From Alphaproteobacteria bacterium (lineage in GTDB: Bacteria > Pseudomonadota > Alphaproteobacteria > UBA828): 64,000 nucleotides of DNA. The DNA lies in contig CBDBLP010000002.1 in assembly GCA_965207055.1 (NCBI GenBank), positions 336,152 to 400,151 of the forward strand. Direction: 5' to 3'. The number at the start of each line of letters is the position of its first letter. Position 1 is the stretch's first letter. Positions 370-26,000 of this stretch are shown here, in pieces. Made by a program: the position numbers and the translations under genes. The notes beneath the pieces are model-generated. The model was given only the letters and a program-made list of their open reading frames with translations, did not search any database and had not been told where the DNA came from.

Positions 370-1188
370 ATGCTCGACGACTTCTTCATGCGCGCTCTCA
401 TCGCCGGCATCGGGCTCGCGCTCGTCACCGGGCCGGCGGGGTGCTTCGTGGTCTGGCGCAGACTGGCCTACTTCGGCGAGACCATCGCGCACTCCTCGCT
501 GCTCGGCGTCGCGCTCGCCATCGTGCTGCAGTTCAACCTGGTCATCGGCATCCTGATCAGCGCCGCGCTGGTGGCCGTCATCATGTTCTATCTCGACCGG
601 CGCGGCACGCTGCCGACCGACACCCTGCTGGGCCTGCTCGCCCACGGCGGGCTCGCCCTCGGCCTGGTGATCCTCTCGTTCTTCCCGTCCATGCGGATCG
701 ACCTGCACGGGCTGCTCTTCGGCGACATCCTGGCCGTCCAGCGGATCGACCTGGCGGTGATCTGGGGTGGCGGCGCGGTCGTGTTGGGCGTGCTCGCGTG
801 GCTCTGGCGTCCGTTGCTGGCGGCGACCGTCAACCCGGACCTCGCCGCGGTGGCGGGCCTCAAGCCAGAGCGGGCGCGGCTGATCTTCGGACTGCTGGTG
901 GCGGCGATCATCGCCGTCGCCATCAAGATCGTCGGCATCCTGTTAATCGTGGCGCTCCTGATCATTCCCGCGGCCACCGCCCGGCGCTTCGCACCGAGTC
1001 CCGAATGGATGGCCGTGGGCGCCGCGGCGGTGGGCGCCTCCGCGACCGTGGGCGGGCTCTACGCGTCCGCGACCTGGGACACGCCCTCCGGCCCCTCCAT
1101 CGTCGTCACGGCGCTGGCGCTCTTCATCGTGACCCGCGCCGACGCCCTTCGGAAGGTGGGGCAATTGGTGGTCAGCCGGAGACGGTAA
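370..1188 (+). CDS. znuB: Zinc ABC transporter permease
   Basis: 272-aa polytopic membrane protein (MLDDFFMRALIAGIGLALVTGPAGCFVVWRRLAYFGETIAHSSLLGVALA...), typical of the ZnuB/ABC-3 family. It is tightly linked to the znuC-like gene. Confidence 0.85.
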   Translation: MLDDFFMRALIAGIGLALVTGPAGCFVVWRRLAYFGETIAHSSLLGVALAIVLQFNLVIGILISAALVAVIMFYLDRRGTLPTDTLLGLLAHGGLALGLVILSFFPSMRIDLHGLLFGDILAVQRIDLAVIWGGGAVVLGVLAWLWRPLLAATVNPDLAAVAGLKPERARLIFGLLVAAIIAVAIKIVGILLIVALLIIPAATARRFAPSPEWMAVGAAAVGASATVGGLYASATWDTPSGPSIVVTALALFIVTRADALRKVGQLVVSRRR

Positions 1189-1971
1189 CGGCCTCGTCGG
1201 CGCAGCCCTCCAGCTCGATCTGCACGGTGACGTGGCGGATGTCGAAGCGGTCCGCGAGGCGCTCCTGAATGGCGGCGACAGCCGAATCGGGATTGGTGCC
1301 CTCGGTGACACGGGCGTGGAGCGTGAGCAGCGAGTGCTCCTGCGAGAGCGACCAGGCGTGGACGTGATGCACGTCCTCGACGACGGGAACGTGCGAGACC
1401 AGATCGCGGCCGATGTCGCGAACGTCCAGCGCGGCGGGCACGCCTTCGAGCAGGACGTGCGCCGCGTCCTTCACCAGGAACCAGGCGCTGCGCAGCACCA
1501 AGAGCCCGACCACGATTGAGAGAATCGGGTCGATCGGCATCCAGCCGGTGGTCATGATGACCAGCGCCGCGCCGATCGCCGCCACCGAGCCCAGCATGTC
1601 GCCCCACACGTGGAGGAGCGCGCCCCGCACGTTGAGGTTGGTGCGGTCGGCACCATGGAGCACGGCGAACGCCGCAATGTTGACGGCCAGGCCAAGCCCC
1701 GCCACCGCCAGCATGGGGCCGGCCAGCACCTCCGTCGGGTTCAGCAGCCGCTCGGCGGCCTCGCTGAAGATCCAGATGCAGATGAAGACGAGGCTGATGC
1801 CGTTGGTGAAGGCGGCGAGGACGGGGAAGCGGTGATAGCCGTAGGTGCGTGCCGTATCGGCAGGGCGCCGGCTCAGCCTGAAGGCGAGCCAGGCGAAGAG
1901 CAGGGAGACCGAGTCGATGAGCATGTGCGCGGCATCGGCCAGCAGCGCGAGCGAGCCCGAGAGCACGCCGC
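1172..1971 (-). pseudogene. czcD: Cation diffusion facilitator (CzcD-like) gene, C-terminal 264-codon fragment cut off by transposon insertion
   Basis: CDF motifs run from VLSGSLALLADAAHMLIDSVSL onward (TM2-TM6 plus the cytoplasmic domain). The N-terminal 94 aa of the track ORF (1172..2248) are read-through into the transposon end and have no CDF character. Confidence 0.85.
1967..1971. repeat. 5-bp target-site duplication GCCGC (left copy)
   Basis: GCCGC lies directly before the TGAGCG terminus, and an identical pentamer is at 6397-6401. Confidence 0.8.
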
Positions 1972-2116
1972 TGAGCGGGCGCACGCTTTCAGCGGCGATC
2001 TGGGGCTGATCGGCTCGGATTAATCGAGGTTTTGGGATGGGTGCCCCCCGGCGATCTTGCAAGAAGGCCGCCGGAGGGCTTGTCTCGGTGACGGTGAAAT
2101 CATCTGAGACGCCCCA

Positions 2117-2731
2117 ATGTCGCACAAGCTGTTCCGCCACTCCATGCTTTCCGATGCCCGGGTGTGGGCTTTCCTGAAGCGGGTCGACGCGGCGGAGACG
2201 GAGACCTGCCGTGCGGCGGGCTGTCCGCGCTGCGGCGGGGCGCTTCACAGCGCGACCTACCCGCGCAAGCCGTACGGCCTGTCGGCCGATCTTCGGGACG
2301 ATGCCCGACGCTTCAGCCTGTGCTGTTCGGTGTGCCGGCGCCGCGTGAATCCTCCGTCGGTGCGTTTCTTCGGGCGCCGGTTCTATGTCGGGGCTGTGTT
2401 CCTCCTGGTGAGCGCTCTGGCTCTGGCCGGCGGCGTGCGGCTGCAGACGATCGCGCGGCGGTGCGGGGTTCCGGCGTCGACGCTGAGGCGCTGGCGGCGC
2501 TGGTGGCAGGAGATCTTCCCGCTCACCCGGGAATGGCGGGCCAAGCGGGGCGCGCTTGCAGCGCCGCCCGGCGAGGCGCCGCTGCGCTGGCTGCTGGGTT
2601 CGGTGCGGGGCGCCAGCTTCCGCTCGCGGCTGTTGCGCAGCCTGGTCTGGCTGATGCCGTGGACCGGCTTTTGCACGCTCGGCGCCGGGCCGGGATCTCC
2701 CGCAGAAAGCGTTTCTTTTATGAACGGATAG
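2117..2731 (+). CDS. Zn-ribbon plus HTH-like protein of the transposon, function unknown
   Basis: 204 aa with CPRCGG...CCSVCRRR cysteine pairs (putative zinc ribbon), followed by a hydrophobic segment and the HTH-like stretch IARRCGVPASTLRRWRRWW. It is the first gene inside the left end. Confidence 0.55.
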   Translation: MSHKLFRHSMLSDARVWAFLKRVDAAETETCRAAGCPRCGGALHSATYPRKPYGLSADLRDDARRFSLCCSVCRRRVNPPSVRFFGRRFYVGAVFLLVSALALAGGVRLQTIARRCGVPASTLRRWRRWWQEIFPLTREWRAKRGALAAPPGEAPLRWLLGSVRGASFRSRLLRSLVWLMPWTGFCTLGAGPGSPAESVSFMNG

Positions 2732-2780
2732 GCCGCTCTACACCGGCAACTCCCCAGGACGGCGAGGGAGGGATGCCGGG

Positions 2781-4262
2781 ATGGACAGCAACGACGGGAA
2801 CGGCCGCCGCGACCGGTGGGCGCGGCTGCGGTTCGCGGTGGTCGGGCCGCTGCTGGCCTCGCCGCCGCCGGCAGGGCGGCTGCGGGCGGAGCTTGAGCGG
2901 CTGTCGCGGCGCGACTGGGAGCACCCGTCGGGCAGGGGTCCGGTGCGCTTCGCGGCCTCCACGATCGAACGCTGGTACTACCAGGCGCGGGCGGCCGAGC
3001 ACGATCCGGTCAAGGCGCTGCGGCGGCGGCCGCGCGCCGATGCCGGGCGCGAGCGGGCGATGTCGCCGGCGCTGCTCGCGGCGCTGCGCGAGCAGTACCG
3101 GGCGCATCCGTCGTGGTCGGCGCAGCTGCACTACGAGAATCTCGGCGCGCTGGTCGAGGCCGACCCCGCGCTCGGCCCGATGCCGTCCTACGCGACGCTG
3201 ACCCGGGCGATGCGCAGCCGTGGCCTGGTCCGCAAGCGCCGGCGCCGGCGCTTCGAGCGCGAGCCCGAGCCGGTCGCGCAGACGCGCGAGGTGCTGAGCT
3301 ACGAGGTCGAGCGCAGCCACGGCCTCTGGCACTGCGACTTCCACCATGCGAAGCGCCGCGTGCTGACGCCGTCCGGCGAATGGAAGACGCCGATCCTGCT
3401 CGGGTTCCTGGACGATCGTTCGCGGCTCGGCTGCCACCTGCAGTGGTATCTGGCGGAGACCGCCGAGGTCTTCGTCCACGGGCTCTGCCAGGCCTTCATG
3501 AAGCGCGGCCTGCCGCGCGCCCTGATGAGCGACAACGGCTCGCCGATGATCGCCGGCGAGGTCGAGGAGGGGCTGCACCGGCTTGGCATCGTCCACTCCA
3601 CGACCCTCGCGGGAGCCCCTTATCAGAACGGCAAGATGGAGGTCCTGTGGGCCTCGGTCGAGGGCCGCCTGATGGCCATGCTCGAAGGGGTCGAGGCGCT
3701 CACCCTGAAGACGCTCAACGATGCCACCGTCGCCTGGGTCGAGCAGGACTACCACCGCCGCGTTCACCGCGAGCTCGGCACGACGCCGATGAAGCGACTG
3801 CTCGACAGCGTCGATGCGTCGAGGCCCTGTCCCGGCGTCGACACGCTCAGGGCTGCGTTCCGGATCACCCGGAAGCGCACGCTGAGGCGCTCGGACGGAA
3901 CCGTCTCGGTCGAGGGCGTGCGCTTCCAGATGCCGGCGCCATGGCGCCACCTGAACATGCTCTGGATCCGCTACGCGCGCTGGGACCTGTCCAGCGTCGA
4001 TCTGGTCGACGCCCCTGACGGCGAGCGGCTGTGCACCCTCTATCCGCTGGACAAGCGCGGCAATGCCGGCGGCATGCGCCGCCCCACCGCCCCTGGCGAT
4101 GACGATGGCGGCGGCAGCCCCGGCGCCGCCGGGGGCGAAGCCGCGCCGCTGCTCAGGCGCATCCTCGACAACCAGGCCGCCACGGGCCTGCCGCCGGCCT
4201 GGCTGCCCCATGCCGCAAGCCCCCGTCCCGACAAGGACGACCAACAGGGAGACCCCTCATGA
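2781..4262 (+). CDS. DDE (retroviral-integrase fold) transposase, TniA/TnsB/MuA-like
   Basis: 493 aa with an rve-type core: HGLWHCDFHH..., LMSDNGSPM..., YQNGKMEVLWASVEG (D, D, E context). The N-terminal region is HTH-like. Confidence 0.8.
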   Translation: MDSNDGNGRRDRWARLRFAVVGPLLASPPPAGRLRAELERLSRRDWEHPSGRGPVRFAASTIERWYYQARAAEHDPVKALRRRPRADAGRERAMSPALLAALREQYRAHPSWSAQLHYENLGALVEADPALGPMPSYATLTRAMRSRGLVRKRRRRRFEREPEPVAQTREVLSYEVERSHGLWHCDFHHAKRRVLTPSGEWKTPILLGFLDDRSRLGCHLQWYLAETAEVFVHGLCQAFMKRGLPRALMSDNGSPMIAGEVEEGLHRLGIVHSTTLAGAPYQNGKMEVLWASVEGRLMAMLEGVEALTLKTLNDATVAWVEQDYHRRVHRELGTTPMKRLLDSVDASRPCPGVDTLRAAFRITRKRTLRRSDGTVSVEGVRFQMPAPWRHLNMLWIRYARWDLSSVDLVDAPDGERLCTLYPLDKRGNAGGMRRPTAPGDDDGGGSPGAAGGEAAPLLRRILDNQAATGLPPAWLPHAASPRPDKDDQQGDPS

Positions 4263-5092
4263 ACCGCGAACTGCTCACCTTCTTCGGCCTCAAGTGGAAC
4301 CCCTTCTCAAGCGAGCTGCCGTTCGACGGCCTCATGGCGACCCCCGCCGTCGACAGCTTCTGCCACCGGGTGGAGCACCACCTGGTGCGCCAGGGTGGCT
4401 TCGCCCTGATCACCGGCGAGCCCGGCACCGGAAAGAGCGTCGCGCTTCGCCTGCTCGCCGACCGGCTCGCCCGCACCGACGGATTGCGCGTCGCCGCGCT
4501 CTCCCACCCGTCCTCGCGTCTCGGCGACTTCTACCGCGAGATGGGCGAGCTGTTCGGCATCACCCTGGTCACCGGCAGCCGATGGACCAGCTTCAAGGGG
4601 CTGCGCGAGCGCTGGCTCGCCCATCTCGACGACACCCGCATGCGGCCCCTGCTGCTGATCGACGAAGCCCAGGAGCTGCACGTCACGGTGCTGTCCGAGA
4701 TCCGCCTGCTCGGCTCCATCGACTTCGACTCGCGCGCCATCCTCTCGGTCGTCCTGGCCGGCGACAACCGCCTGCTCGACAGGCTCGGCCAACCCGACCT
4801 GCGGCCGCTCGCCTCGCGCATCCGACAGCGCCTCGTCATGGCGCCCGCCGAACACGAAGAACTCGCCCGGTTGCTCGACCACCTGCTGCAGGAGGCCGGC
4901 AACCCGGCGCTGATGACCGCCGACCTCAAGGACGCGCTCTGCGCCCATGCCTCGGGCAACCCCAGGACGCTCACCGTCATGGCCGATACCCTGCTCGCCA
5001 TCGCCGCCGAACAGGATCGCGAGGTGCTCGACGAGAAGCTCTTCCTGGAGACCTGGGGCGAGGCCCCGCCGCGCAGGGCAAATCGGCGATGA
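4259..5092 (+). CDS. AAA+ ATPase partner of the transposase (TniB/ExeA/AAA_22-like)
   Basis: 277 aa with Walker A GEPGTGKSV and Walker B LLLIDEAQEL. Its start overlaps the transposase stop. Confidence 0.75.
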   Translation: MNRELLTFFGLKWNPFSSELPFDGLMATPAVDSFCHRVEHHLVRQGGFALITGEPGTGKSVALRLLADRLARTDGLRVAALSHPSSRLGDFYREMGELFGITLVTGSRWTSFKGLRERWLAHLDDTRMRPLLLIDEAQELHVTVLSEIRLLGSIDFDSRAILSVVLAGDNRLLDRLGQPDLRPLASRIRQRLVMAPAEHEELARLLDHLLQEAGNPALMTADLKDALCAHASGNPRTLTVMADTLLAIAAEQDREVLDEKLFLETWGEAPPRRANRR

Positions 5093-6114
5093 AGGGCTTC
5101 CCGACCCGAACCCCGGCCGACCTCGAGAACCGGCCGCGCCGGCAGCAGTGGCTGGTCGACGGGCTCTGGGCGCGCCAGGCGGTCGGCATCGTCGGCGGCG
5201 AACCCAAGTGCGGCAAGTCCTTCCTCGCGCTCGACCTCGCCGTCGCCGTGGCCGCCGGCGTGCCCTGCCTGCGCCGCTTCGCCGCCGAACAGCCCGGACC
5301 GGTCCTGCTGTTCGCCGCCGAGGATGCCGGCCACATCGTGCGAGCCCGCCTCGAGGGCATCGCCCGCGCCGCCGGCGCCCGGTTCGAGACCCTCGACATC
5401 GCCGTCATCGACGTCCCGATCCTCCGCCTCGACCACCGCAACGACCGCCAGCGCCTGATGGAGACCGTGGAGCGCGTCGGGCCACGCCTCGTGGTCCTCG
5501 ACCCCCTGGTCCGCCTCCACGGCGTCGACGAGAACGCCGTCGCCGAGGTCGCCCCCATCCTCGGCTTCCTGCGCGACATACAGCGACGCTTCGAGACCGC
5601 AATCCTGCTCGTCCACCATGCCCGCAAGAGCGGCGCCGCCCGGCCGGGCCAGGCGCTCAGGGGATCGTCCGAGCTGCACGCATGGGGGGACAGCAATCTG
5701 TACCTGCGCCGGCGGGACAAGCAGATCGTCATGACCGTCGAGCATCGCGCCGCCCCGGGCCTCAACGATGTCGAAATCGAACTCGCCGATGACGGCGAGG
5801 GACCCGCCTTGCGCCTCCGGCGCCCGGCGCCGGCCGAAGCCGCGCCGGAGCCGGAAACCCCCGAACGGCGTATCCTCCAGGCACTCGCCGACGCCGACGC
5901 GCCGCTCTCCCAGCGCCAGATCCGCGAGCGCGCCGCGACCCGGCCGGCAACCGTCGCCGAGGCGCTGCACAAGCTCGTCCGCGAAGGACGCGTCGAGCGC
6001 GCTGCCGAAGGCGGATACCGCCTCACCGCCGACAACGCCACGCCCCCAGCCGCTGTCAATGGTCGGGGCCGCAACGACGTGTTACCGAAAACCGTTACCG
6101 CCTCGAACCCCTAG
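5089..6114 (+). CDS. RecA-fold AAA_25-type ATPase with C-terminal winged-helix domain
   Basis: The internal ATG at 5089 overlaps the preceding stop (ATGA). Walker A is GGEPKCGKSF, Walker B is LVVLDPLVRL, and LLVHHARK follows. The C-terminus ILQALADADAPLSQRQIRERAATRPATVAEALHKLVREGRVER looks like a MarR-type wHTH. Confidence 0.7.
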   Translation: MKGFPTRTPADLENRPRRQQWLVDGLWARQAVGIVGGEPKCGKSFLALDLAVAVAAGVPCLRRFAAEQPGPVLLFAAEDAGHIVRARLEGIARAAGARFETLDIAVIDVPILRLDHRNDRQRLMETVERVGPRLVVLDPLVRLHGVDENAVAEVAPILGFLRDIQRRFETAILLVHHARKSGAARPGQALRGSSELHAWGDSNLYLRRRDKQIVMTVEHRAAPGLNDVEIELADDGEGPALRLRRPAPAEAAPEPETPERRILQALADADAPLSQRQIRERAATRPATVAEALHKLVREGRVERAAEGGYRLTADNATPPAAVNGRGRNDVLPKTVTASNP

Positions 6115-6143
6115 GGAGGCAGGGTAACGGTAACGGGTAACAC
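6079..6143. repeat. GTTACC/GGTAAC inverted-repeat cluster spanning the stop codon of the AAA_25 gene
   Basis: GTGTTACCGAAAACCGTTACC (6079-6099) pairs with GGTAACGGTAACGGGTAACAC (6123-6143). As an inverted repeat 17 of 21 positions match, including two perfect 8-bp blocks. Confidence 0.7.
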
Positions 6144-6396
6144 CCCCCGCCAGCTTCCATCGCCGTACCGCGTCGAGCGATCGGCTCATGGCCGAAAGCT
6201 CTGCTTACGGCCATGGATGCACTCCGTCGGATGGACGGCGGCGGGTCACCCGAAGGGCCGGAGCGAAGCGAAGGAGCCGCGCAGCGGCTTGACGCGTCGA
6301 CGGCCGTCCGACACCCCGACAGCGTTCCTCCGAACCTGACCCGGCAACCATCGAATAACCCGATCACCGCACCATCAGATACCGGAAGCGCGCTCA

Positions 6397-6401
6397 GCCG
6401 C
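6397..6401. repeat. 5-bp target-site duplication GCCGC (right copy)
   Basis: It lies directly after the CGCTCA terminus of the transposon. Confidence 0.8.
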
Positions 6402-6525
6402 CGATCACCTCGGCGATCGTGAAGCCCGCGGTCAGCAGCAGCGCCCAGAAGATGCGGGTGGCGTTGTCGCCGTGCGCATGGTGGACGTGCGCGTGGCCAG
6501 CATGACCGTGGTGGTGGGCGGCCAT
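6397..6525 (-). pseudogene. czcD: CzcD-like CDF gene, N-terminal 43-codon fragment
   Basis: Translates to MAAHHHGHAGHAHVHHAHGDNATRIFWALLLTAGFTIAEVIGG and then runs into a TGA supplied by the transposon end (6394-6396). The His-rich N-terminus plus TM1 is typical of CzcD. Confidence 0.8.
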
Positions 6526-6657: not shown

Positions 6658-7704
6658 TCAGCCGAGCGGCGTGTTGAGAAAGGCGATGAACGACACCAGG
6701 CCGACGAGGGTGACCAGTGCGGCGCCGGCGTAGTTCATGCCGTGGCGCAGCACGTTCGCCCCGCCGCCGCCCGAGCGCTCCATGACCCGCATCGCGGCTT
6801 GCCTGGCGAGGATCGCGCCGACCCCCAGCACGCAGATGCTCGAGCCGATACCGAGCGACATCGCCGCGACCAGCAGGGAGCCGGGAACGATCATGTCGTT
6901 GGCCACGGCGTAAAGCATGATCAGCACGGCGCCGGGGCAGGGGACCATGCCGGCCGCGAGCGCCAGAATGCCGCCTTCCGCCTTGCCGCCGTGACTGTGG
7001 CCATGGTGATGGCCGTGGTCGTGATGGTGGGGGTGGTCGTGATGATGAGGCGGGCTGTGCCCGTGGCTGTGATCATGGCTGTGCCCGTGTCCGTGCCCGT
7101 GTGCGCCGCCTGAGCGCGCCCTCAGCGAGGCACGCACGGCCTGGTAGAGCATGTAGAGCCCGATGCCGACGATGATGAGGAAGCTCGCGGCGCGCACGCC
7201 CGGCACGTCCGATAGCCCGAGGCCGAAGCCGCCGCGCAGCACGAGGTCGGCCAGCCAGACGATGACGACGGCGGCGATGACGTGGACGATGGCGATCTGC
7301 ACGGCCATGACAACGCCGCGCATCACCCGTGCCTCGCGCCCGAGGAAATAGGAGACGACCACGAACTTCCCGTGCCCCGGCCCGAGCGCATGGACGGCGC
7401 CGTAGGCGAACGCGACCGCAAGGGCCAGGAGGAAGGCGCCGAGGTTCTCGCCCCGCTCGATGGCGTTCATGTGGAGGGCGACCTCGGCGTTGGCGCGGCG
7501 CTGGAAGTCCATCAGGAAGTCGGTGAAACCCTCGAACAGGCCGCCGTCTTCCTCGACGATCTCGACCTCGACCGGGGCGGGCGCTGCGCCGTCGGTCTGC
7601 GAGAGCGCGAGCGGTGCCGTGAACAGGCTGGTCAGAAGCAGCACGCACACCAGGCCCAGCAGCGCGGCCGGCCTGCGGCGGCGTCTATGGGGCCGATTGC
7701 TCAT
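6658..7704 (-). CDS. RcnA/NicO-like nickel-cobalt (metal) transporter with a His-rich loop
   Basis: 348 aa with the HALGPGHGK motif, the loop HGHGHGHSHDHSHGHSPPHHHDHPHHHDHGHHHGHSHGG, and a VPCPGA motif. Confidence 0.75.
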   Translation of the reverse strand: MSNRPHRRRRRPAALLGLVCVLLLTSLFTAPLALSQTDGAAPAPVEVEIVEEDGGLFEGFTDFLMDFQRRANAEVALHMNAIERGENLGAFLLALAVAFAYGAVHALGPGHGKFVVVSYFLGREARVMRGVVMAVQIAIVHVIAAVVIVWLADLVLRGGFGLGLSDVPGVRAASFLIIVGIGLYMLYQAVRASLRARSGGAHGHGHGHSHDHSHGHSPPHHHDHPHHHDHGHHHGHSHGGKAEGGILALAAGMVPCPGAVLIMLYAVANDMIVPGSLLVAAMSLGIGSSICVLGVGAILARQAAMRVMERSGGGGANVLRHGMNYAGAALVTLVGLVSFIAFLNTPLG

Positions 7705-7710
7705 TGCGGT

Positions 7711-8301
7711 TTACCCCTCGCACGCCAGCGTGACCGGCTGGGGATGGCCGGATTGCGCGCCCTTGCCGCGCGCGATGCGGAACTTGCATCCCGGCGTCAT
7801 CTCGCCGCTAACCAGCAGGAAGTGCCCATCGGAAAAGCTGAAATCCACGAAGTTTTCGCGATCGAACAGGCTGACGGCCACCGCTTCTACCTTCGGATCG
7901 AGGGGCGGCGTAAGGCCCATGGAAAACTCGTAAACGAGGCGTGCCTGCTCGATCCGCGCCGCAAAGCGATCCACGTTGTGGACCTTCTGTTGTTCCTCCC
8001 CCGCCCAGATGTGAACGAAATAGTCTGCGGGCGCGAGCGGGTCGAAGGTCTCGGTGCGCAGGTTCCTGACCTCGAGAGAATTGAGCGTTCCATCCCCGTC
8101 CAGATCGTAGGTTTGGATGGTATGGGCGCTGTAGAAGTCATCGAATGTCCACGAAAACTCCAATCCGCTGACCCGCTGATCGTCGAACGCGACGGTGAGC
8201 GTGGTCTCGACCCACACGTCCGGATTGGCGCGCGCCTCGGCTGCTGCCAGCAGCGGGATCAGTGCGAGTGCCGGCGCCCATAGCCTGACGATCGCCGCCA
8301 T
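7711..8301 (-). CDS. DUF1007-family periplasmic protein, partner of the RcnA-like transporter
   Basis: 196 aa with a signal peptide (MAAIVRLWAPALALIPLLAAAEARA) and the stretch HPDVW-like...LSFSWTFDDFYS. It lies 6 nt upstream of the transporter gene. Confidence 0.65.
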   Translation of the reverse strand: MAAIVRLWAPALALIPLLAAAEARANPDVWVETTLTVAFDDQRVSGLEFSWTFDDFYSAHTIQTYDLDGDGTLNSLEVRNLRTETFDPLAPADYFVHIWAGEEQQKVHNVDRFAARIEQARLVYEFSMGLTPPLDPKVEAVAVSLFDRENFVDFSFSDGHFLLVSGEMTPGCKFRIARGKGAQSGHPQPVTLACEG

Positions 8302-8408: not shown

Positions 8409-9155
8409 TTAGGAGCTGAGGTCCACAGGCCCGAGGGAGATCTGCGGGGACGAGTCGGTCAGCGCCTCCATCACCTTCCTCTGGCTGCCGCGCAGCGCGT
8501 GCTCGGTCAATTGCGCGGCTCGCTCGCCGTCGCCCTCGATCAGTGCCTCGACCAGGTCGTCGTGGAAGTGGTGGAACTCGTGCTCCCGCCGCTGCATGGC
8601 GAGCCCCAAGTGCACGATGCGCTCGTGCTGCTCCATGAGGCCGACGACCAGGGTGACCAGGCGCTGGTTGCCGGAACTCTCCGCAACGTAGCGGTGGAAC
8701 TCGCGATTGGCCCGCAGGTAGGCCGCCTGGCCGGCCTTGTCGCCTTCCGGATAGGTCGCGTGCGCAGCCTCGTTGAGTGCGCGCAGGCGCTCGGCATCCA
8801 CCTTGCCGGCGGCGAGCCTCACGGCAGTGACGTCGAGCACGAGGCGGAGCTGGAAGATCTCCTGAATGTCGCGCAGCGTGACCGGGGAGACCGCGTTGCC
8901 CTGCCGCCCGCGCGAGACGATCAGCCCTTCCTGACGCAGGCGCATCATGGCGCTGCGGATGGGCGCCTTGCTCATGCCGTAGCGCGCGACGAGCAAGCCC
9001 TCGGAGATCTCCTCGCCCGGCTGCAGGGCGCAGGAGATGATCTCGTCTTTGATCGTCGCGTAGGCGATATCGTTCAGGTTCGGCTCGGCCGTTCGCGTGC
9101 TTTCGTTCAGCGATTCAGAGGGTTGCGGGGCGGCACGATGTTTCGTGGATGGCAT
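8409..9155 (-). CDS. GntR-family transcriptional regulator (FadR/FCD subfamily)
   Basis: N-terminal wHTH (ISEGLLVARYGMSKAPIRSAMMRLRQEGLIVSRGRQGNAV) with an all-helical FCD-like C-terminal domain. The start is placed at the ATG at 9155 (MPSTKH...). Confidence 0.8.
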   Translation of the reverse strand: MPSTKHRAAPQPSESLNESTRTAEPNLNDIAYATIKDEIISCALQPGEEISEGLLVARYGMSKAPIRSAMMRLRQEGLIVSRGRQGNAVSPVTLRDIQEIFQLRLVLDVTAVRLAAGKVDAERLRALNEAAHATYPEGDKAGQAAYLRANREFHRYVAESSGNQRLVTLVVGLMEQHERIVHLGLAMQRREHEFHHFHDDLVEALIEGDGERAAQLTEHALRGSQRKVMEALTDSSPQISLGPVDLSS

Positions 9156-9636
9156 GGATCGTCGGGTCCTTGCCGGCTCCTGCCGGCGTAGGCGGCCGCG
9201 CGGCGCGCCGATACTGCCCGAACGTAGCGCAAGTGTCTGCCGCTCGCGAGGGCCGGCACAACCGGGCGCGAGCGCCGCTGCGAATCGGCGAGAGACCGAC
9301 GCGTCGCGGCTGGTTATCGCACACAAATGCAGCTATAATACTGATTATGATATATCTTATACGCTATAGAATAAACTGAGAACTGTATACCATATCTAGG
9401 GCAAAAATCTATATATGGTGGGATATGATAGACTTACCAGCGACTCGAGATAGCTCGGATGCATTCGTGAACGCTAACGCCCACGAACGCTGGCCTTCTT
9501 CTGGTGCCCCGAACCGCTAATTCCGCTCATCGAAGAATGCTGTTGTCGGCCCGCGGGCTGAGGCGCTTCTGCCTCCGCTGGCCAGGCCTCGTCGTCTTCG
9601 CCGTCGTCATCGCGTTCTCAGCGCTCTGTAGCCGCG

Positions 9637-9920: not shown

Positions 9921-10391
9921 CTACACATGCCAGCGCCTGTCCCGGCCTACCGGATCGAACAGCCGAGGCCGGCGGCCGTTGCGCTTCGCCCCGGTCCAAT
10001 CCACCGCAACTATGGTCGCGTCCGCCAGGCCTGCCCCACGGAGGTCCGCCATGGAAAAATCCGCCGCAGTGAGGTCAGCGCCCATCATGGCTGCGTCACA
10101 CAAGCGAGCGGACGCGAAGCAGGCGCGCGTTGCGTCCGCTTGTCGCAGGTCAGCCCCGATCAGCACCGCCTGGCGGAGCGAAGCTGCGATCAGGTCCGCC
10201 GAATGAAGCACCGCGCCGGTGAGGTTGGAATTGCTGAGGTCGCTGCACGTCAAATCCGACCCAGAGAGGTCAGCCTGCACGAGCCGAGCCCCGGCCAGCC
10301 GCTTGCACCGCAGGTCCAGGCGCCGCAGATCGGCGCCGGCAAAGTCCCGCTCGCCGGCCGCGTATCGGGACAGCAATTCATCGGCCGTCAT
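9921..10391 (-). CDS. Pentapeptide-repeat protein
   Basis: 156 aa. A(D/N)L-type pentapeptide periodicity is visible throughout (ADLRRLDLRCKRLAGARLVQADLSGSDLTCSDLSNSNLTGAVLHSADL...). Confidence 0.85.
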   Translation of the reverse strand: MTADELLSRYAAGERDFAGADLRRLDLRCKRLAGARLVQADLSGSDLTCSDLSNSNLTGAVLHSADLIAASLRQAVLIGADLRQADATRACFASARLCDAAMMGADLTAADFSMADLRGAGLADATIVAVDWTGAKRNGRRPRLFDPVGRDRRWHV

Positions 10392-10484
10392 CGAGGCGTC
10401 TATATCGCCCTGCCACGGCCCGCGACAAGCCCCTTCCCAACATCGCGCGGGAGGTAACAGGCGGCATCTGAGTGCCCGCCTGCA

Positions 10485-13400
10485 TCAATACTCCACTTCG
10501 GACGAAGGGCTGGCGATCACGTTATCGCGGAGTTGGTTGTACCGGTCCCGCATCCTGCGCTCGATCTCGTCGGCAACCTCTTCGGCGACCTCGCGCGGAT
10601 CGGCGGCGTTTGAATGGACCGTGAGAGAACCGATGACCGACTGGATATTTACCGTGCCCGCCCGCTCGGCCCTGCGCTGACGGCGCCCCCTCGGCCCGGA
10701 CGCGGCCGCCTCCGCCTCGGGCTCCGGCGGTGTCCACACCTGATCGCCGTGGCGCTCGGCCATATCTGCGGCCCGCCGCCGCCGCCGGCGCTGAACGTGC
10801 GGAACCTGTCTGAGCCCGACGCCGCGCCAGTTTCCGATCTCCGGTGGCGCGTTCGGGTCGCGCTTGGGAATCAGGTCGAGGATCCACTGCGCCGCGTTCT
10901 CGCTCTCCTTCGAGGTCCAGCCTGGATCGAATGCCGCCTTGGTGGCGGCGCGGCCCGCGCTCTCGCCGCCCATAAAGCCACCCAGGCCGGCCAGGAGCGA
11001 CCCGCCGAATCGGATCGGTCCCGGCAGGGATCGCATGAGGCTGCCCGCGACACGCCCGGCTGCTGAAGATCCAGCCAAGCCGCCGGCGAGGCCGCCCACC
11101 TCGGGTGCGACCTGGTCGTCCGGTATCGCGCCTGTAGCGATGTCGTGTGCCGTGAGGCCCATGAGCGCACCGGCGCTGGCCGGGCCGAGGCCGCGGGTAA
11201 GGAGCCGCCACAGGCCGCCAGCCCTCGGCCGCGAGCCCGGACCAGTGCCGCTGAGGCGGCCTTCGCCGACCCTTGGTCGGGTGCCGGGGCCTGTGCCGCT
11301 GAGACGACCTTCGCCGAGACGTGGCCTGGTACCGGGTCCTGTGCCGCTGAGGCCGCCGCCCCTGGGTCCCGCCCGCGAGCCGGGGCCTGTGCCGCTGAGA
11401 CGCCCGCCGCCTGACCTGGGCCGCGTCGTTGGACCTGTGCCGCCCAGGTGCGCCGGTGTGAGCCGAGGCCGCGAGCCGGGGCCTGTGCCGCTGAGACGGC
11501 CTTCGCCTGCTCTCGGCCGCGAGCCAGGGCCGCTGCCGCTGAGACGACCTTCGCCGACCCTTGGTCGGGTGCCGGGGCCTGTACCGCTGAGACGACCTTC
11601 GCCGAGACGTGGCCTGGTACCGGGTCCTGTGCCGCTGAGGCCGCCGCCCCTGGGTCCCGCCCGCGAGCCGGGGCCTGTGCCGCTGAGACGACCTTCGCCG
11701 AGACGTGGCCTGGTACCGGGTCCTGTGCCGCTGAGGCCGCCGCCCCTGGGTCCCGCCCGCGAGCCCGGACCAGTGCCGCTGAGGCGGCCTTCGCCGACCC
11801 TTGGTCGGGTGCCGGGGCCTGTGCCGCTGAGACGACCTTCGCCGAGACGTGGCCTGGTACCGGGTCCTGTGCCGCTGAGGCCGCCGCCCCTGGGTCCCGC
11901 CCGCGAGCCGGGGCCTGTGCCGCTGAGACGCCCGCCGCCTGACCTGGGCCGCGTCGTTGGACCTGTGCCGCCCAGGTGCGCCGGTGTGAGCCGAGGCCGC
12001 GAGCCGGGGCCTGTGCCGCTGAGACGGCCTTCGCCTGCTCTCGGCCGCGAGCCAGGGCCGCTGCCGCTGAGACGACCTTCGCCGACCCTTGGTCGGGTGC
12101 CGGGGCCTGTACCGCTGAGACGACCTTCGCCGAGACGTGGCCTGGTACCGGGTCCTGTGCCGCTGAGGCCGCCGCCCCTGGGTCCCGCCCGCGAGCCGGG
12201 GCCTGTGCCGCTGAGACGACCTTCGCCGAGACGTGGCCTGGTACCGGGTCCTGTGCCGCTGAGGCCGCCGCCCCTGGGTCCCGCCCGCGAGCCGGGGCCT
12301 GTGCCGCTGAGACGCCCGCCGCCTGACCTGGGCCGCGTCGTTGGACCTGTGCCGCCCAGGTGCGCCGGTGTGAGCCGAGGCCGCGAGCCGGGGCCTGTGC
12401 CGCTGAGACGGCCTTCGCCTGCTCTCGGCCGCGAGCCAGGGCCGCTGCCGCTGAGACGACCTTCGCCGACCCTTGGTCGGGTGCCGGGGCCTGTACCGCT
12501 GAGACGACCTTCGCCGAGACGTGGCCTGGTACCGGGGCCTGTGCCGCTGAGGCCGCCGCCCCTGGGTCCCGCCCGCGAGCCGGGGCCTGTGCCGCTGAGA
12601 CGCCCGCCGCCTGACCTGGGCCGCGTTGTTGGACCGCCGCCCAGCCCGGCGAGCCGCGTGAACAGGCGGCCAGCCCCGCGAAGAGCCTTGAACGCGTACC
12701 AGCTGCCGGCGAGCAGGCCCACCCCGACCAGCAGCTCATCCTTGAACGAGGTGAGCGCGGTCACAACCTCGCCGACCGGACCGGTGAGCTTGTCCTGCAT
12801 CCAGGCATCGACGTCGGTCTTGGTCTCCTGGACCTTCGCGGCGGACGTTTCGGCCATCCTCGCGGCATCGCGCGACAGCATGTCCGGCGGCGCCTCGATC
12901 GTGAGAAAGCGTTCGTAGTCGGCCCGCCCCTGCGCCGTGAAAAGGCCGGAAATCGCGCGTACCCCTTCGGCGTCGATAATCCCCGACAGGCGAGTGATGT
13001 CGCCGTCTACTGCGTCGACGACCTCCTTGACGATGCGGTCCAGCGGGCGGAAAGCGCCCGTGGCGTCGCGAACGTTGACGCCGAGCTGCTCCCAGATCAG
13101 GTCGATCTTCTGAGCATCGGAGAGCGTGCGCAGGAACGCTTCCACGGCGGTCGTCGCCTGTTCGCTCGATCCGGTGGACTGGCGGGCCATCTGGGCGAAC
13201 GCGCCGAGCTGGCGAGCGGCGGCGGGGCCCTGGTAGCCGAGGCGGGCAAAGGCCGAGGTCAGACGCTCGCCCTGGGCGGCCATGTTGCCGACCGTAAACG
13301 CGCCGGACTTCCCCTGCGCCGTCCACAGGTTGAAGGCCCGCGCGACGCCGGCCGGATCGGTGATGCCGAGTTTGCGCATCTCGGCGGCAAGGCGGCCGAT

Positions 13401-14174
13401 GGCGTCGCCAGTGCCGCCCGATCCCTGAATTGCCTGGGCGACCAGCACCAGATTGTCGCGCACAAAGTCCAGGTCTCCCGTCTTCTCGATGACTGCCTCG
13501 GCGGCGGCGAGAAGCTGCGACGGATCGAGGCGTATTTCCTTCAGGTTGGCAGTCGCGTTCACTTCCTGCTGAAACCGTTTGATCTCTTCCCTGGACCGCC
13601 CGGTCTGTATTTCGAGCCGCGCGTAGCGCTGCTCCAGGGTGAGCATGCGCTTGAGGCCACTGGCGATGGCAAAGCCGCCGCCTGCAATTCCGAGGACGCC
13701 TGCGCCCAGGCCGATTCCGCCGCGCAGCCTGCCTGCGGTACGGGCCGCGAGGCCGGCTTCCGTGCGGAATCCCTTCAGGCGCCGGGTGAGGCGGCCAAGG
13801 GACCGCTCGCCGTCCCGGCCGGCCCGGCGGAGCCCGTGGCCGAGGCGGTTTGCTTCCTGGGTGGTCCGCTGGATCTCGCGCCGCGCGCCGCGCGCGCCCT
13901 CACGGACGCCGCGGCCCATGAGCGAGCCGCTGCGGCTTGCCTTCATCAATCCGCCGCTGAGGCGGCTCGCTTCCTTGGTGGTCCGCTGGACTTCGCGCCG
14001 TGCGCCGCGCGTGCCCTTGGCGACGTTGCGGCCCATGAGCGAGCCGCTGCCTGCGGCCTTGCGGAGGCTGCCGCCGAGGCGCTCGGTGTCCTGCGCCGCC
14101 CCCTTCGCGCCGCGGCGGAAGCGCCCCGCCGCGAGGTCGAGGAGGACGCCTACGCGATAGGTGGAATCGGCCAT
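10485..14174 (-). CDS. Phage tail tape-measure-like protein with a large internal G/P/R-rich repeat array
   Basis: 1,229 aa. Residues about 180-420 resemble the TP901-type tape-measure N-terminal domain (LEIQTGRSREEIKRFQQEV..., LGITDPAGVARAFNLW..., AFLRTLSDAQ...). Gly-rich hydrophobic segments follow. Confidence 0.7.
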   Translation of the reverse strand: MADSTYRVGVLLDLAAGRFRRGAKGAAQDTERLGGSLRKAAGSGSLMGRNVAKGTRGARREVQRTTKEASRLSGGLMKASRSGSLMGRGVREGARGARREIQRTTQEANRLGHGLRRAGRDGERSLGRLTRRLKGFRTEAGLAARTAGRLRGGIGLGAGVLGIAGGGFAIASGLKRMLTLEQRYARLEIQTGRSREEIKRFQQEVNATANLKEIRLDPSQLLAAAEAVIEKTGDLDFVRDNLVLVAQAIQGSGGTGDAIGRLAAEMRKLGITDPAGVARAFNLWTAQGKSGAFTVGNMAAQGERLTSAFARLGYQGPAAARQLGAFAQMARQSTGSSEQATTAVEAFLRTLSDAQKIDLIWEQLGVNVRDATGAFRPLDRIVKEVVDAVDGDITRLSGIIDAEGVRAISGLFTAQGRADYERFLTIEAPPDMLSRDAARMAETSAAKVQETKTDVDAWMQDKLTGPVGEVVTALTSFKDELLVGVGLLAGSWYAFKALRGAGRLFTRLAGLGGGPTTRPRSGGGRLSGTGPGSRAGPRGGGLSGTGPGTRPRLGEGRLSGTGPGTRPRVGEGRLSGSGPGSRPRAGEGRLSGTGPGSRPRLTPAHLGGTGPTTRPRSGGGRLSGTGPGSRAGPRGGGLSGTGPGTRPRLGEGRLSGTGPGSRAGPRGGGLSGTGPGTRPRLGEGRLSGTGPGTRPRVGEGRLSGSGPGSRPRAGEGRLSGTGPGSRPRLTPAHLGGTGPTTRPRSGGGRLSGTGPGSRAGPRGGGLSGTGPGTRPRLGEGRLSGTGPGTRPRVGEGRLSGTGPGSRAGPRGGGLSGTGPGTRPRLGEGRLSGTGPGSRAGPRGGGLSGTGPGTRPRLGEGRLSGTGPGTRPRVGEGRLSGSGPGSRPRAGEGRLSGTGPGSRPRLTPAHLGGTGPTTRPRSGGGRLSGTGPGSRAGPRGGGLSGTGPGTRPRLGEGRLSGTGPGTRPRVGEGRLSGTGPGSRPRAGGLWRLLTRGLGPASAGALMGLTAHDIATGAIPDDQVAPEVGGLAGGLAGSSAAGRVAGSLMRSLPGPIRFGGSLLAGLGGFMGGESAGRAATKAAFDPGWTSKESENAAQWILDLIPKRDPNAPPEIGNWRGVGLRQVPHVQRRRRRRAADMAERHGDQVWTPPEPEAEAAASGPRGRRQRRAERAGTVNIQSVIGSLTVHSNAADPREVAEEVADEIERRMRDRYNQLRDNVIASPSSEVEY
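11215..12645. repeat. About 30 tandem in-frame copies of a 48-bp (16-aa) unit organised in higher-order repeats
   Basis: The unit is GEGRLSGTGPGSRPRx. The TPAHLGGTGPTTRPRS variant recurs at 528-bp and 384-bp spacing (11 and 8 units). Long stretches are nearly identical at the DNA level. Confidence 0.85.
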
Positions 14175-23074: not shown

Positions 23075-26000
23075 ATGATTCCACCCATCGCACCTCATCA
23101 GGCCTACTCAGGACTAGTCAGCCCACGACTTAACCGTATCTACACGCTCCTCTCCACCTTCCTAGGACCTCAGCCCCACGCCCAGAGCCAAGACAGGAAT
23201 GCTACCGATATTTGGGTCGACGAAGGCGGGAATGTAGAGGCAAGCACTGCCACGTTGACGATCAACGAAGGAGAGACCAAGAGCTACAGCGTGCGACTCA
23301 CGAAGCAACCACATTCGGAAGCCGACCAAGACTGGTGGGTCATGATCGTGGTCGACGGCAAGCGGCGCAACGACAGATTCTATCCCAACGAAGAGAATCC
23401 GATCGTCAGCTGGTCACCGTCGATCGGGAGAACATTCGACAGGGGCAACTGGAACCGATGGAAAGACATCACAATTACGGCGCACCAGGATGACGACGAC
23501 GATGATCACACAATAATCTTTTCCTCCGAACTGTGGGATCACGACGCCTACTGTCCTCCAGACTTGCACGGGGGTGGCACACCCCTGGCGATGGTGACCG
23601 TCCACATTATTGACGACGATGGCGACTTGCCGAGCCTGTCTATCGAAGACACGACGGTCGACGAGGGAGACGAGGCAGAATTCGTCGTAAAGCTGAGCAA
23701 GGTGAGCGACGAGACCGTGTCGGTGAGGTACGCGACGTCGGGAGGAACCGCCACCGAGGGCACGGACTACACCCGTGAAACCGGCACACTTACCTTCGAG
23801 CCTGGCCAAACACAAAAGTCCATCGAAGTACAGACAACCCAGGACGAGCTCGACGAACCGAACGAGGAGTTCTCCCTAACCCTGAGCAACCCCGACCGCG
23901 CGGCACTGAGCAGGGGCACGGGAACCGGGACGATCAAGGACAACGACGATCCGAATCTCTCCATCGCGGATGCGACGCCGGTGGTCGAGGGCGGGACGGC
24001 AGAGTTCGTCGTGACGATGAGCATAGAGAGCACGCGAAGCGTGACGGTCAACTACCAGACCAGGAGCGGGACGGCAGTCGCGGGACAGGATTTCCAGACG
24101 ACGTCGGGCATCCTGACTTTCAACCCGAACACCACGCAGCAGACCATCTCGGTGCCCACAACCGACGATGCGACCGACGAGGTGGACGGGGAGACCTTCA
24201 CGGTGACGCTGAGTGCTCCCAACGGCGCGACGCTCGAAGACGGCTCCGCAACGGGAACCATCAACGACAACGACGAGGCGAAGCTCTCCATCTCGGATGC
24301 CACGGCGGTTGAGGGAAACCCGGCGCGATTCGACGTGACGCTGAGCCCGGCGAGCGACCGGACCGTGACGGTGAGCTACGCGACGTCGGGGGTGACGGCG
24401 ACCGAGGGCACGGACTACACCGGGACGTCCGACACAACACTCACCTTCTCGGCCGGCGAACTGCAGAAAAGGATCGAGATAGCGACCCACACGGACTCTA
24501 CCGTCGAGCCCGATGAAACCTTTAGGGTCACGTTAAGCAGCCCGAGCGAAGCGGGCATAGAGGACGGCACCGCGACGGGGACGATCACCGACGATGACCT
24601 GCCGGCGCTCTCCATCGCGGACGCGCCGGCGGTGACCGAGGGTGAGACGGCAGAGTTCGTCGTGACTCTGAGCGCGCCCAACATGGATCCCGTGACGGTC
24701 AGCTACGAAACGGCAAGCGGGACCGCGACCGAGGGCACGGACTTCACCCGGACGACCGACACGCTGAACTTCAGCGCAAACTCGAACACACCGCAAATCC
24801 GGACCATCTCGGTGCCGACGGAAGATGACGGTGACGAGGAGACGAGCGAGACCTTCACAGTCCGACTGACCAACGCCGACGGCGCAACAGTGGAGGACGG
24901 CACTGCAACGGGGACCATCAACGATAACGACGACCCAGAACCAAACCCGAATCCGAATCCCAACCCGAACCCCAACCCCAACCCCAACCCCAACCCCAAC
25001 CCCAACCCCAACCCCAACCCCAACCCCAACCCCGACCCGGGTGATAACAACGACAACAACGACAACGGGGGCGACGGAAATGGCGGCAACGGGGGCAACG
25101 GCGGCAATGGTGGGAACGGCGAGAACGGCGAGAACGGTGGAAACGGTAACGGTGACGGAAACGGCGGAAATGACGGCAACGGCGAAAATGGCGAAAACGG
25201 TGAGAGCGGTGGCAACGGTGAGAACGGCGGCAACGGAAACGGCGACGGAAACGGCGGAGGCAGCCTCCCGACCCTCTCCATTGCGGACGCGACGGCGGAC
25301 GAGGGAGAAAGAGCAGGCTTCGCAATAACGCTGAGCGCGTCCAGCGACCAGGACGTGACCGTGCAATATCGGACGGTGGACGGAACGGCGGAATCGGGCA
25401 CTGACTACACCGCGATATCCGACACGCTCACCTTCCCCTCCGGCACCACACGGCAACTTGTGGAGGTGTCCACCCTCGACGATGCATCCCGAGAAGCGGA
25501 CGAGACGTTCACGGTGACGCTGGGCAACCCCACCGGCGCGACGCTGGAAGACGGCTCCGCAACGGGGACGATCATCGACAATGACGACGCACCAACCCTC
25601 TCCATCGCTGACGCGACTGCCATCGAGGGAGGAGGTGCGGAATTCCTCGTAACGCTCAGCCCGGCGAGCGCGGAAACCGTGACGGTCGACTACCGGACGG
25701 CCAGCGGAACGGCCATCGCGGGAGAGGATTTCGACACCACATCGGGCACTCTGACCTTCGCTCCCAATGCCACAGAGCAGACCATCACGGTTCAGACCCG
25801 CGAGGACGACCTGGACGAGCCGGAAGAGATCTTTGCCTTGACGCTGAGTAACCCCGACGGGGCGACGCTGGCGGACACCAGCGCGACGGGGACGATTGTC
25901 GACGATGACGTGTCGGGCTTCTCCATCGCGGACGCGGCGGTGGAGGAGGGAAGCACGGCAGAGTTCGTCGTGACGCTCAGCGTGCCAAGCTGGCAGAGAA

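Follow-up and report, generated by a model that had tools for sequence, protein, structure and literature searches.

The 64,000-nucleotide stretch of alphaproteobacterial DNA analyzed in this study (GenBank assembly GCA_965207055.1, contig CBDBLP010000002.1, positions 336,152 to 400,151; hereafter the window) contains a precisely bounded transposon of 4,425 bp at positions 1972-6396. The transposon is intact, has been active recently and belongs to a large family in which Tn6049 is the only named member. The fourth of its genes codes for an AAA_25-type NTPase with a C-terminal winged helix, and this gene is an integral part of the element, not loose cargo. We estimate a probability of about 0.5 that the fourth gene slot couples transposition to DNA replication, the AAA_25 protein being a helicase that the element supplies for itself, and a small protein that takes its place in other members being an adaptor for host factors. 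The core of the element is already known from Tn6049; the AAA_25 variant in the fourth slot is newly described here.

The element carries four open reading frames (ORFs), all on the forward strand and partly overlapping. Stop and start codons overlap as ATGA at both the transposase/ATPase and the ATPase/AAA_25 junctions, and the ORF list leaves no room for a further ORF inside the element (Table 1). An initial annotation, made from the sequence letters, had called a zinc-ribbon/helix-turn-helix (HTH) protein, a DDE transposase, an AAA+ partner and a second, RecA-like ATPase at these positions, and the Pfam and NCBIfam matches (HTH_23, rve, AAA_22, and AAA_25 with a winged helix) agree with it in coordinates and domains. 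The protein encoded by orf1 has a zinc-ribbon-like N-terminus with four cysteines, visible in the sequence as CxxC...CCxxC, and is kept in nearly all relatives; orf1 is among the core genes that the family conserves. The rve match of the transposase (29.4 bits) lies just below the gathering cut-off of 32.6, and its catalytic triad, D186/D251/E287, does not vary across 11 aligned relatives; the protein also has a conserved C-terminal motif, APLL...AATGLPPAWLP. The ATPase matches TIGR03015 over its full length (E 1e-28), below the cut-off of that model, and is predicted to be, probably, the transposition and target-capture partner. Sequence searches of the PDB with the ATPase and the transposase returned P-loop noise and retroviral integrase cores only, and the transposase profile failed to reach the MuA or TnsB structures. 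Against phages, tblastn of the ATPase gave nothing and the transposase gave a marginal match only.

The termini of the element read TGAGCG...CGCTCA, in full TGAGCGGGCGCA.../...GCGCGCTCA, and a 5-bp target duplication, GCCGC, is present on both sides. Six copies with identical AAA_25 proteins from one metagenome sample part exactly at TGAGAGGGCGCA... and ...GCGCACTCA, with short direct repeats on both sides that differ among the six, and the boundary in the window follows from applying these divergence points to it. Similarity between the left and right ends of the window copy is weak beyond the tip, and among relatives the terminal inverted repeats reach 12 of 12 positions. The subterminal sequence of the left end, conserved among relatives, probably contains transposase-binding sites. 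An empty target site was sought by exact-match look-up of two proteins encoded nearby in the window, and because neither is on record, the excision was carried out in silico: removal of the element and one GCCGC yields a 307-aa ORF that matches Pfam Cation_efflux over positions 2-198 of 198, together with ZT_dimer. The window copy is thus inserted in a chromosomal transporter gene, a czcD-like cation diffusion facilitator (CDF) gene. The bounded ends, the duplication and the excision test together bear out the initial proposal of a mobile unit pairing a DDE transposase with an NTPase. The surroundings of the insertion have a metal-homeostasis character, with an ABC-3 (ZnuB-like) permease (window 370-1188), the disrupted CDF exporter (1172-1971/6397-6525), NicO with DUF1007 (6658-8301) and a GntR/FCD regulator (8409-9326); Tn6049 copies in strain CH34 likewise interrupt metal-resistance genes (pbrU, PMC2864759).

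With nhmmer models of the left and right ends, 72 copies could be end-paired (L003-L090 and the window). Their target duplication measures 5 bp in 40 copies and 4 bp in 20, and the remaining 12 have none, one of which (L007) reads as a 6-bp repeat. These duplication-less copies are mostly paired within the same genome; no match between their flanks could be made among the loci covered, and the pairs may have arisen by recombination between copies or by intramolecular events. The target consensus of the 40 five-bp duplications is C19 C28 N G26 G22, a CCNGG-type pentamer. This palindromic pentamer resembles the target preference of phage Mu, CYSRG.

Relatives were sought in contigs from one genome per species, which gave 585 transposase relatives, and synteny was read from the 80 best loci. 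The transposase and the AAA_25 protein each form more than 7,700 clusters at 90% identity, and relatives lie in metagenome-assembled genomes (MAGs) assigned to Alphaproteobacteria, Acidobacteriota, Actinomycetota and Chloroflexota. Within several MAGs and metagenome samples the element is present in many copies, and we regard it as recently active because related alphaproteobacterial MAGs hold copies that are 95.8-98.7% identical in nucleotides (95.9% for the copy at L019). A nucleotide search of the element against PLSDB plasmids found nothing. At 16 of 16 places with two close AAA_25 homologues, the same gene string (204 / 492-497 / 277 / 341-344 aa) is set between unrelated flanks, and the order orf1-tnpA-ATPase-AAA_25 recurs in nearly all of the 80 best loci, at transposase identities from 98% down to 55%; these four-gene loci include some at 55-57% in MAGs of Beta- and Deltaproteobacteria and Terriglobia. 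Identities drop roughly in parallel across the four genes, the AAA_25 gene having diverged along with the transposase. The gene-neighbourhood survey that the initial annotation had called for therefore finds the AAA_25 gene syntenic rather than unlinked. Some copies are nested or damaged (L004, L011, L015, L040, L079-L082, L090 and L086): at L004 the element lies inside an IS110-family transposase gene, L086 is a deletion derivative in which ATPase codon 86 is fused directly to the structured non-coding element (CNS) described below, and insertions of 2-3.7 kb occur inside element copies, some of them within the AAA_25 gene.

A tblastn search against plasmids found transposases of about 50% identity on the megaplasmids of Cupriavidus metallidurans CH34 and on pHS87a of Pseudomonas aeruginosa. 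Tn6049 is a registered transposon of 3.5 kb with 12 copies in CH34 and an ATPase named gspA (PMC2864759); its inverted repeats measure 12 bp, its duplication was reported as 4 bp (PMC4739549), and its transposition module 'could not be categorized' (PMC6210171). The annotated locus lists a 'transposase' of 181 aa, an 'IS481 family transposase', an 'AAA family ATPase' and a 71-aa hypothetical protein, and the copy on pMOL28 has the ends TGTGCATAAGCA.../...GCTCACGCACA and the duplication TATGG. The first three genes of Tn6049 are homologous to those of the window element and stand in the same order, with identities of 40% for orf1, about 50% for the transposase and 50% for the ATPase. The two also share TG...CA termini with short, imperfect inverted repeats (about 12 bp in this family), a duplication of 4-5 bp, and a multi-copy habit tending toward islands and plasmids (PMC2864759). 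Three of the four genes and their order are thus those of Tn6049, and the ends and the duplication are comparable; the architecture, which the initial annotation could not assign to a named transposon family, can therefore be assigned to one. The window element is longer, at 4.4 kb, and Tn6049 lacks an AAA_25 gene, a Toprim gene and the CNS; its 71-aa fourth protein shows no similarity to the AAA_25 protein of the window. Since it lacks the small fourth gene, the window element is a variant and not another copy of Tn6049.

An rve DDE transposase gene followed by an overlapping P-loop ATPase gene is also the arrangement of Mu A/B, Tn552 p480/p271, Tn5053 TniA/TniB, Tn7 TnsB/TnsC and IS21 IstA/IstB. 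These elements share with the window family TG...CA termini and a duplication of mostly 5 bp, and the preferred CCNGG-like pentamer is a further likeness to Mu. The window family differs from them in its variable duplication, its extra zinc-ribbon/HTH gene and its helicase-like gene. The window transposase has no Pfam match to Mu-transpos_C, a domain of Mu/Tn7/Tn5053/Tn552-type elements; a distant homologue from a second lineage (type 2, described below) does have it, scoring 31.3 against a Pfam cut-off of 21.7. The window transposase is 25% identical to this homologue over residues 3-384, and the pairwise alignment extends into the Mu-transpos_C region. Searches of the four proteins against Pfam and NCBIfam (E<=0.1) matched no TnsA, TniQ/TnsD, TniB, IstB or resolvase family, a difference from Mu/Tn7/Tn5053/Tn552-type elements, and the ATPase had no IstB_IS21 match in Pfam, unlike the IstA/IstB pair of IS21; the initial annotation had been correct in finding no TnsA, TniQ/TnsD or resolvase. 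The best-scoring curated NCBIfam model for the transposase is IS481 (NF033577, E 3e-30), and NCBI labels the Tn6049 transposase IS481 family, but the score of 105.8 bits is far under the cut-off of 224 and the element has four genes. IS481 elements are single-gene insertion sequences (IS) of about 1 kb without an ATPase partner.

The sole significant relative of the AAA_25 protein among solved structures is the hexameric helicase RepA of plasmid RSF1010 (PDB 1g8y, E 4e-11). The AAA_25 core aligns with it over residues 32-196, including a GxxGKS Walker A motif, AED, a VLD Walker B motif, HHxxK and RGSS, which we take to be the catalytic residues of RepA, with RGSS as a candidate arginine finger. 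These RepA-type motifs are invariant in 33 homologues, and by these sequence criteria the domain appears to have an intact NTPase site and an arginine finger, as in RepA/DnaB-like hexameric helicases. The C-terminal ~80 residues match winged helices of the MarR/IclR/GntR type, with HTH_IclR above the Pfam cut-off. RepA itself has no such C-terminal winged helix, and at a plasmid origin it acts together with RepC, a separate initiator, and the RepB' primase, whereas the window protein is encoded inside a DDE transposon. No close relative of the AAA_25 protein was found by tblastn in 72,556 plasmid records (E<=1e-8).

The fourth position of the element accepts different genes. A gene of about 70 aa, and not an AAA_25 gene, occupies it in Tn6049, in a PsJN plasmid copy and at L092 and L096. 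In the type-2 lineage, best seen at L067 (1220-5605), where an element of 4,386 bp with the ends TGTTGTTTCC...GAGACAACA and the duplication TCTGG sits in orf1 of a type-1 copy, the layout is again a Cys-rich protein, an rve transposase, an AAA_22 ATPase and an AAA_25 protein; further type-2 loci are L037 (about 10050-13475, reverse strand), L145, L149, L180, L182 and L185. The type-2 transposase and ATPase are 25-30% identical to those of the window, against 79-82% for the AAA_25 protein. Judging by these identities, the AAA_25 module has been exchanged between lineages with different ends and distant ATPases. Some type-2 copies carry a gene of 68-72 aa in place of the AAA_25 gene, and the ~70-aa proteins of the fourth position are homologous across types 1 and 2.

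A profile search with the small protein found at least 194 homologues, and the C-terminal residue is F in 111 of the 120 listed (P0241-P0360). Typical tails are ...QxDLF(E/D)xFD(D/E)(E/D)(I/L)P(x)F, QL(T/A)LFPELDxPF and ...DEPF, for example DLFEGFDEIPF and QLTLFPELDSPF. Beta-clamp-binding motifs have the consensus QLxLF, and the C-terminal tail of the single-stranded DNA-binding protein (SSB), by which PriA, chi, DnaG and many other proteins active in repair are recruited, consists of acidic residues and then -IPF-COOH. The small proteins match no Pfam family. They and the AAA_25 protein exclude each other at the same position, and a small-protein homologue is absent anywhere in the window and from every AAA_25-carrying element. 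Further variation follows the AAA_25 gene and the hairpin that spans its stop codon, where there is either nothing, a Toprim gene or the ~160-nt CNS, the window having the CNS. In 5.2-kb variants (L069 9405-10274; L088, L090, L042, L050, L071, L083), a fifth gene for a 289-aa primase-like protein with DUF3991 and Toprim_2 domains lies directly after the AAA_25 gene, in the slot of the CNS.

This variability of the region after the ATPase gene (small gene, AAA_25, AAA_25 with Toprim, AAA_25 with CNS) and the movement of the AAA_25 module between lineages could suggest that the AAA_25 gene is selfish or beneficial cargo acting outside transposition, such as a replication remnant of an integrative element, an anti-defence gene or an addiction gene. 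We give little credence to this explanation. Across nearly the whole range of relatives, whose transposases are 98% to 55% identical, the gene has stayed intact and coupled in translation, and it takes the place of a gene that the family otherwise conserves instead of being added to it. Moreover, these 4.4-kb elements hold no other cargo, and PADLOC gave no match to a defence system.

In the mechanism that we propose, the AAA_22 ATPase would capture the target in an ATP-dependent manner, as in the Mu A/B, Tn552 and IS21 pairs, and the transposase would carry out strand transfer of the 3' ends, with a stagger of 4-5 bp. Because the element has neither a TnsA-type second nuclease nor a resolvase, the joined intermediate would need DNA synthesis for its completion, and the link to replication would lie in the fourth gene slot. 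In Tn6049-type elements, the ~70-aa adaptor, through its clamp/SSB-tail-like C-terminus, would recruit host replication or restart proteins; in elements of the window type, a RepA-like hexameric helicase would instead be tethered to DNA by its winged helix, accompanied in some variants by the Toprim primase-like protein. The element would then not depend on host restart factors, since it would place a helicase of its own on the forked intermediate. The initial annotation had considered either a target-selecting or a replicative role for both accessory proteins: for the AAA_25 protein the replicative role is favoured, and for the zinc-ribbon/HTH protein the evidence decides neither way. A more specific version is put forward tentatively, namely that this DDE transposon family has its own replisome-assembly module (a winged-helix-tethered RepA-like helicase, joined in some members by Toprim or a structured element) that is interchangeable with a small adaptor mimicking an SSB tail and clamp-binding motif, the slot being a 'replication hiring' device. 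If this is true, elements with the helicase would be able to transpose replicatively with little need of host restart proteins, and this could account in part for the spread of relatives across several phyla.

The translational coupling of the AAA_25 gene to the ATPase gene would also suit a target selector, regulator (TnsE/TniQ/TnsD-like) or immunity factor that recognises particular DNA or structures, such as conjugating or replicating DNA, and signals to the AAA_22 ATPase. All 16 of the annotated insertion contexts lie in mobile DNA (relaxase, type IV coupling protein, Toprim/SSB/ParB/YAcAr regions, integrases and other IS), a pattern that can come from either targeting or selection, and Tn6049 too is 'often associated with genomic islands' (PMC2864759). 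Yet Tn6049 shows this association without an AAA_25 gene, which makes the bias independent of that protein, and the window copy sits in a chromosomal gene. Insertions have no TnsE-like orientation bias with respect to local GC skew (35 positive and 36 negative of 72). In addition, the exchange of an AAA_25 protein of about 80% identity between lineages whose ATPases are less than 30% identical speaks against functions that depend on a close match with the ATPase, such as target selection, and both the catalytic motifs of a replicative helicase and the primase-like companion gene of some variants point elsewhere. We therefore regard a target-selecting role as unlikely.

A hairpin of GTTACCG/GGTAAC heptad repeats spans the stop codon of the AAA_25 gene, and its arms co-vary between variants (GTTACCG/GGTAAC, GGTTCCCG/GGGAACC, GTTTCCG/GGAAAC). 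It is a candidate terminator or protein-binding site. Heptad repeats beside the AAA_25 gene could also be putative iteron-like sites for the winged helix, as would suit a protein that, with Toprim or the CNS, replicates an excised or copied-out circle, either as a transient mini-replicon or by copy-out/paste-in of the IS3/IS481 type. RepA-type helicases do serve small plasmid replicons, the transposase scores best against IS481 and IS3 models, and the element appears as a stand-alone contig in many assemblies, many AAA_25 homologues lying on contigs of 4.3-4.5 kb. However, stand-alone contigs are expected of any multi-copy repeat, and no circular junction was observed. The IS3/IS481 pathways have no AAA+ target-capture partner, and Tn6049, which has no helicase gene, contains a comparable GTAAC...GTTAC hairpin. 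Replication of a circular form consequently seems quite improbable.

Several points weigh against the coupling of transposition to replication through the fourth slot. The AlphaFold2 model of the AAA_25 protein reached a pLDDT (predicted local distance difference test score) of 53 from a shallow alignment (74-91% identity) and does not confirm the fold, and it is from sequence that we infer helicase activity, oligomeric state and a replicative mode of transposition. The duplication is variable in length, whereas that of Mu and Tn7 is strictly 5 bp. In sequence, the transposase is nearer to IS481 and IS3 models than to MuA or TnsB; since the IS481 and IS3 families transpose through circular intermediates, the pathway may differ in detail here. 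Many elements have neither the Toprim gene nor the CNS, which means that a complete priming module is not universal. Finally, the small-protein tails resemble a clamp-binding motif followed by an SSB tail at the level of motifs.

To our knowledge, the handover of transposition intermediates to replication has been worked out in detail only for phage Mu. For the Tn3 family it is debated, as 'replication hijacking' versus 'replication hiring' (preprint 2026, 10.64898/2026.05.30.728999). The family described here amounts to a natural experiment, in which the same transposase/ATPase core is combined either with a tiny motif-bearing protein or with a helicase-like protein that a primase-like gene may accompany; if our reading holds, these module swaps would give a direct handle on the coupling step. 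We know of no other bacterial DDE transposon encoding its own helicase, and this would then be the first. Tn6049 itself gains the context of a family with thousands of members, whose ends, duplication and target pentamer are now defined, as is needed for annotation in MAGs, where such elements break assemblies. Our literature searches, with ISfinder and TnCentral outside their scope, found no paper on the helicase-like variant, the Toprim and CNS sub-variants, the module exchange or the motif-bearing small protein.

The CNS, which only some elements have in the space that separates the hairpin from the right end, shows about 93% identity when copies of types 1 and 2 are compared, above the conservation of the coding sequences. 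In an alignment of 26 sequences, 15 of its 29 predicted pairs covary, with G-U pairs on the forward strand; with 10 close copies only, the covariation support was modest. The covariance model scores 158 bits at the window copy, its single match in the 64-kb window, and a comparison with Rfam over window positions 1900-6500 gave no match at E<=1. An 18-mer of the CNS occurs in 95 metagenome stretches (L099-L193), of which about 28 are the same transposons, about 25 are other contexts and the rest look like chance. The ~25 other stretches have no AAA_25 or transposase match; they keep the hairpin loop AAGCUCCGCUU and, within a multi-helix structure, the invariant junctions GGGUCACCCGAAGGGCCG...AGCGNAGGAG...CUUGAC, and their helix sequences are wholly different yet compensating. 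Outside the transposons the motif is intergenic or adjoins putative IS30-, ISL3- and IS110-like transposase genes, recognized by N-terminal motifs. The CNS belongs to a wider class of structured motifs outside Rfam.

Three other explanations of the CNS were considered and rejected. A coding sequence is contradicted by indels of 1 nt and 4 nt and by CAG/TAG/AAG variation at one codon, which break all frames. A dispersed genomic repeat in these hosts does not agree with the one match in the 64-kb window, nor with 1.1 Mb of loci in which matches fall only inside transposons. RNA-guided targeting is at odds with identical copies at unrelated sites and with the lack of the CNS in many active-looking variants. 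As this one slot is filled by the Toprim gene in some variants and by the CNS in others, our guess is that the CNS might be a priming or single-strand-initiation signal; a role as an RNA is equally possible.

Table 1. Positions of the transposon features in the window, and of small fourth-position genes at other loci.
Feature	Position	Strand	Basis
Interrupted czcD-like cation diffusion facilitator gene, 3' part	1172..1971	-	ORF list, excision test
Left target-site duplication GCCGC	1967..1971	.	In-silico excision restores the CDF ORF
Left end, tip TGAGCGGGCGCA, then subterminal sequence conserved among relatives	1972..2036	+	End alignments
orf1, 204 aa, Cys-rich/HTH	2117..2731	+	Pfam HTH_23, E 6e-7
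DDE (rve) transposase, 493 aa	2781..4262	+	Pfam rve, E 1e-6
AAA_22 (ExeA-like) ATPase, 277 aa	4259..5092	+	Pfam AAA_22, E 1e-21
AAA_25 RecA-fold NTPase with C-terminal winged helix, RepA(RSF1010)-like, 341 aa	5089..6114	+	Pfam AAA_25, E 1.9e-38
Hairpin of GTTACCG / GGTAAC heptad repeats spanning the AAA_25 stop codon	6081..6141	+	Sequence
CNS, ~160 nt	6173..6332	+	Covariation, covariance model
Right end ...CCATCGAATAACCCGATCACC...ACCGGAAGCGCGCTCA	6342..6396	+	Copy divergence, end alignments, end pairing
Right target-site duplication GCCGC	6397..6401	.	End pairing, excision test
Interrupted CDF gene, 5' part (MAAHHHGH...IAEVIGG)	6397..6525	-	Excision test
Small-gene loci	L001 7303-7518, L002 7266-7481, L092 2360-2590, L096 3716-3931, L009 9221-9427		

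Other features of the window lie outside the transposon. A few kb from it, positions 10485-14174 on the reverse strand encode a 1,229-aa phage minor-tail (tape-measure-like) protein, which points to a prophage or gene transfer agent-like region nearby; the centre of this gene is an array of about 1.4 kb of 96/240/384-nt tandem repeats encoding GTGPGSRPR..GEGRLS units. On the forward strand, a 2,052-aa ORF (23075-29233) includes 7.3 tandem copies of a 321-nt unit with a putative Calx-beta-type appearance by eye (DETFTVTLISPSGATLADATATGTIIDDD), as well as 15.8 copies of AACCCC at 24944-25038. Lastly, a 156-aa ORF on the reverse strand (9921-10391) has the look of a putative pentapeptide-repeat protein (ADLSGSDLTCSDLSNSNLTGAVLHSADL...).

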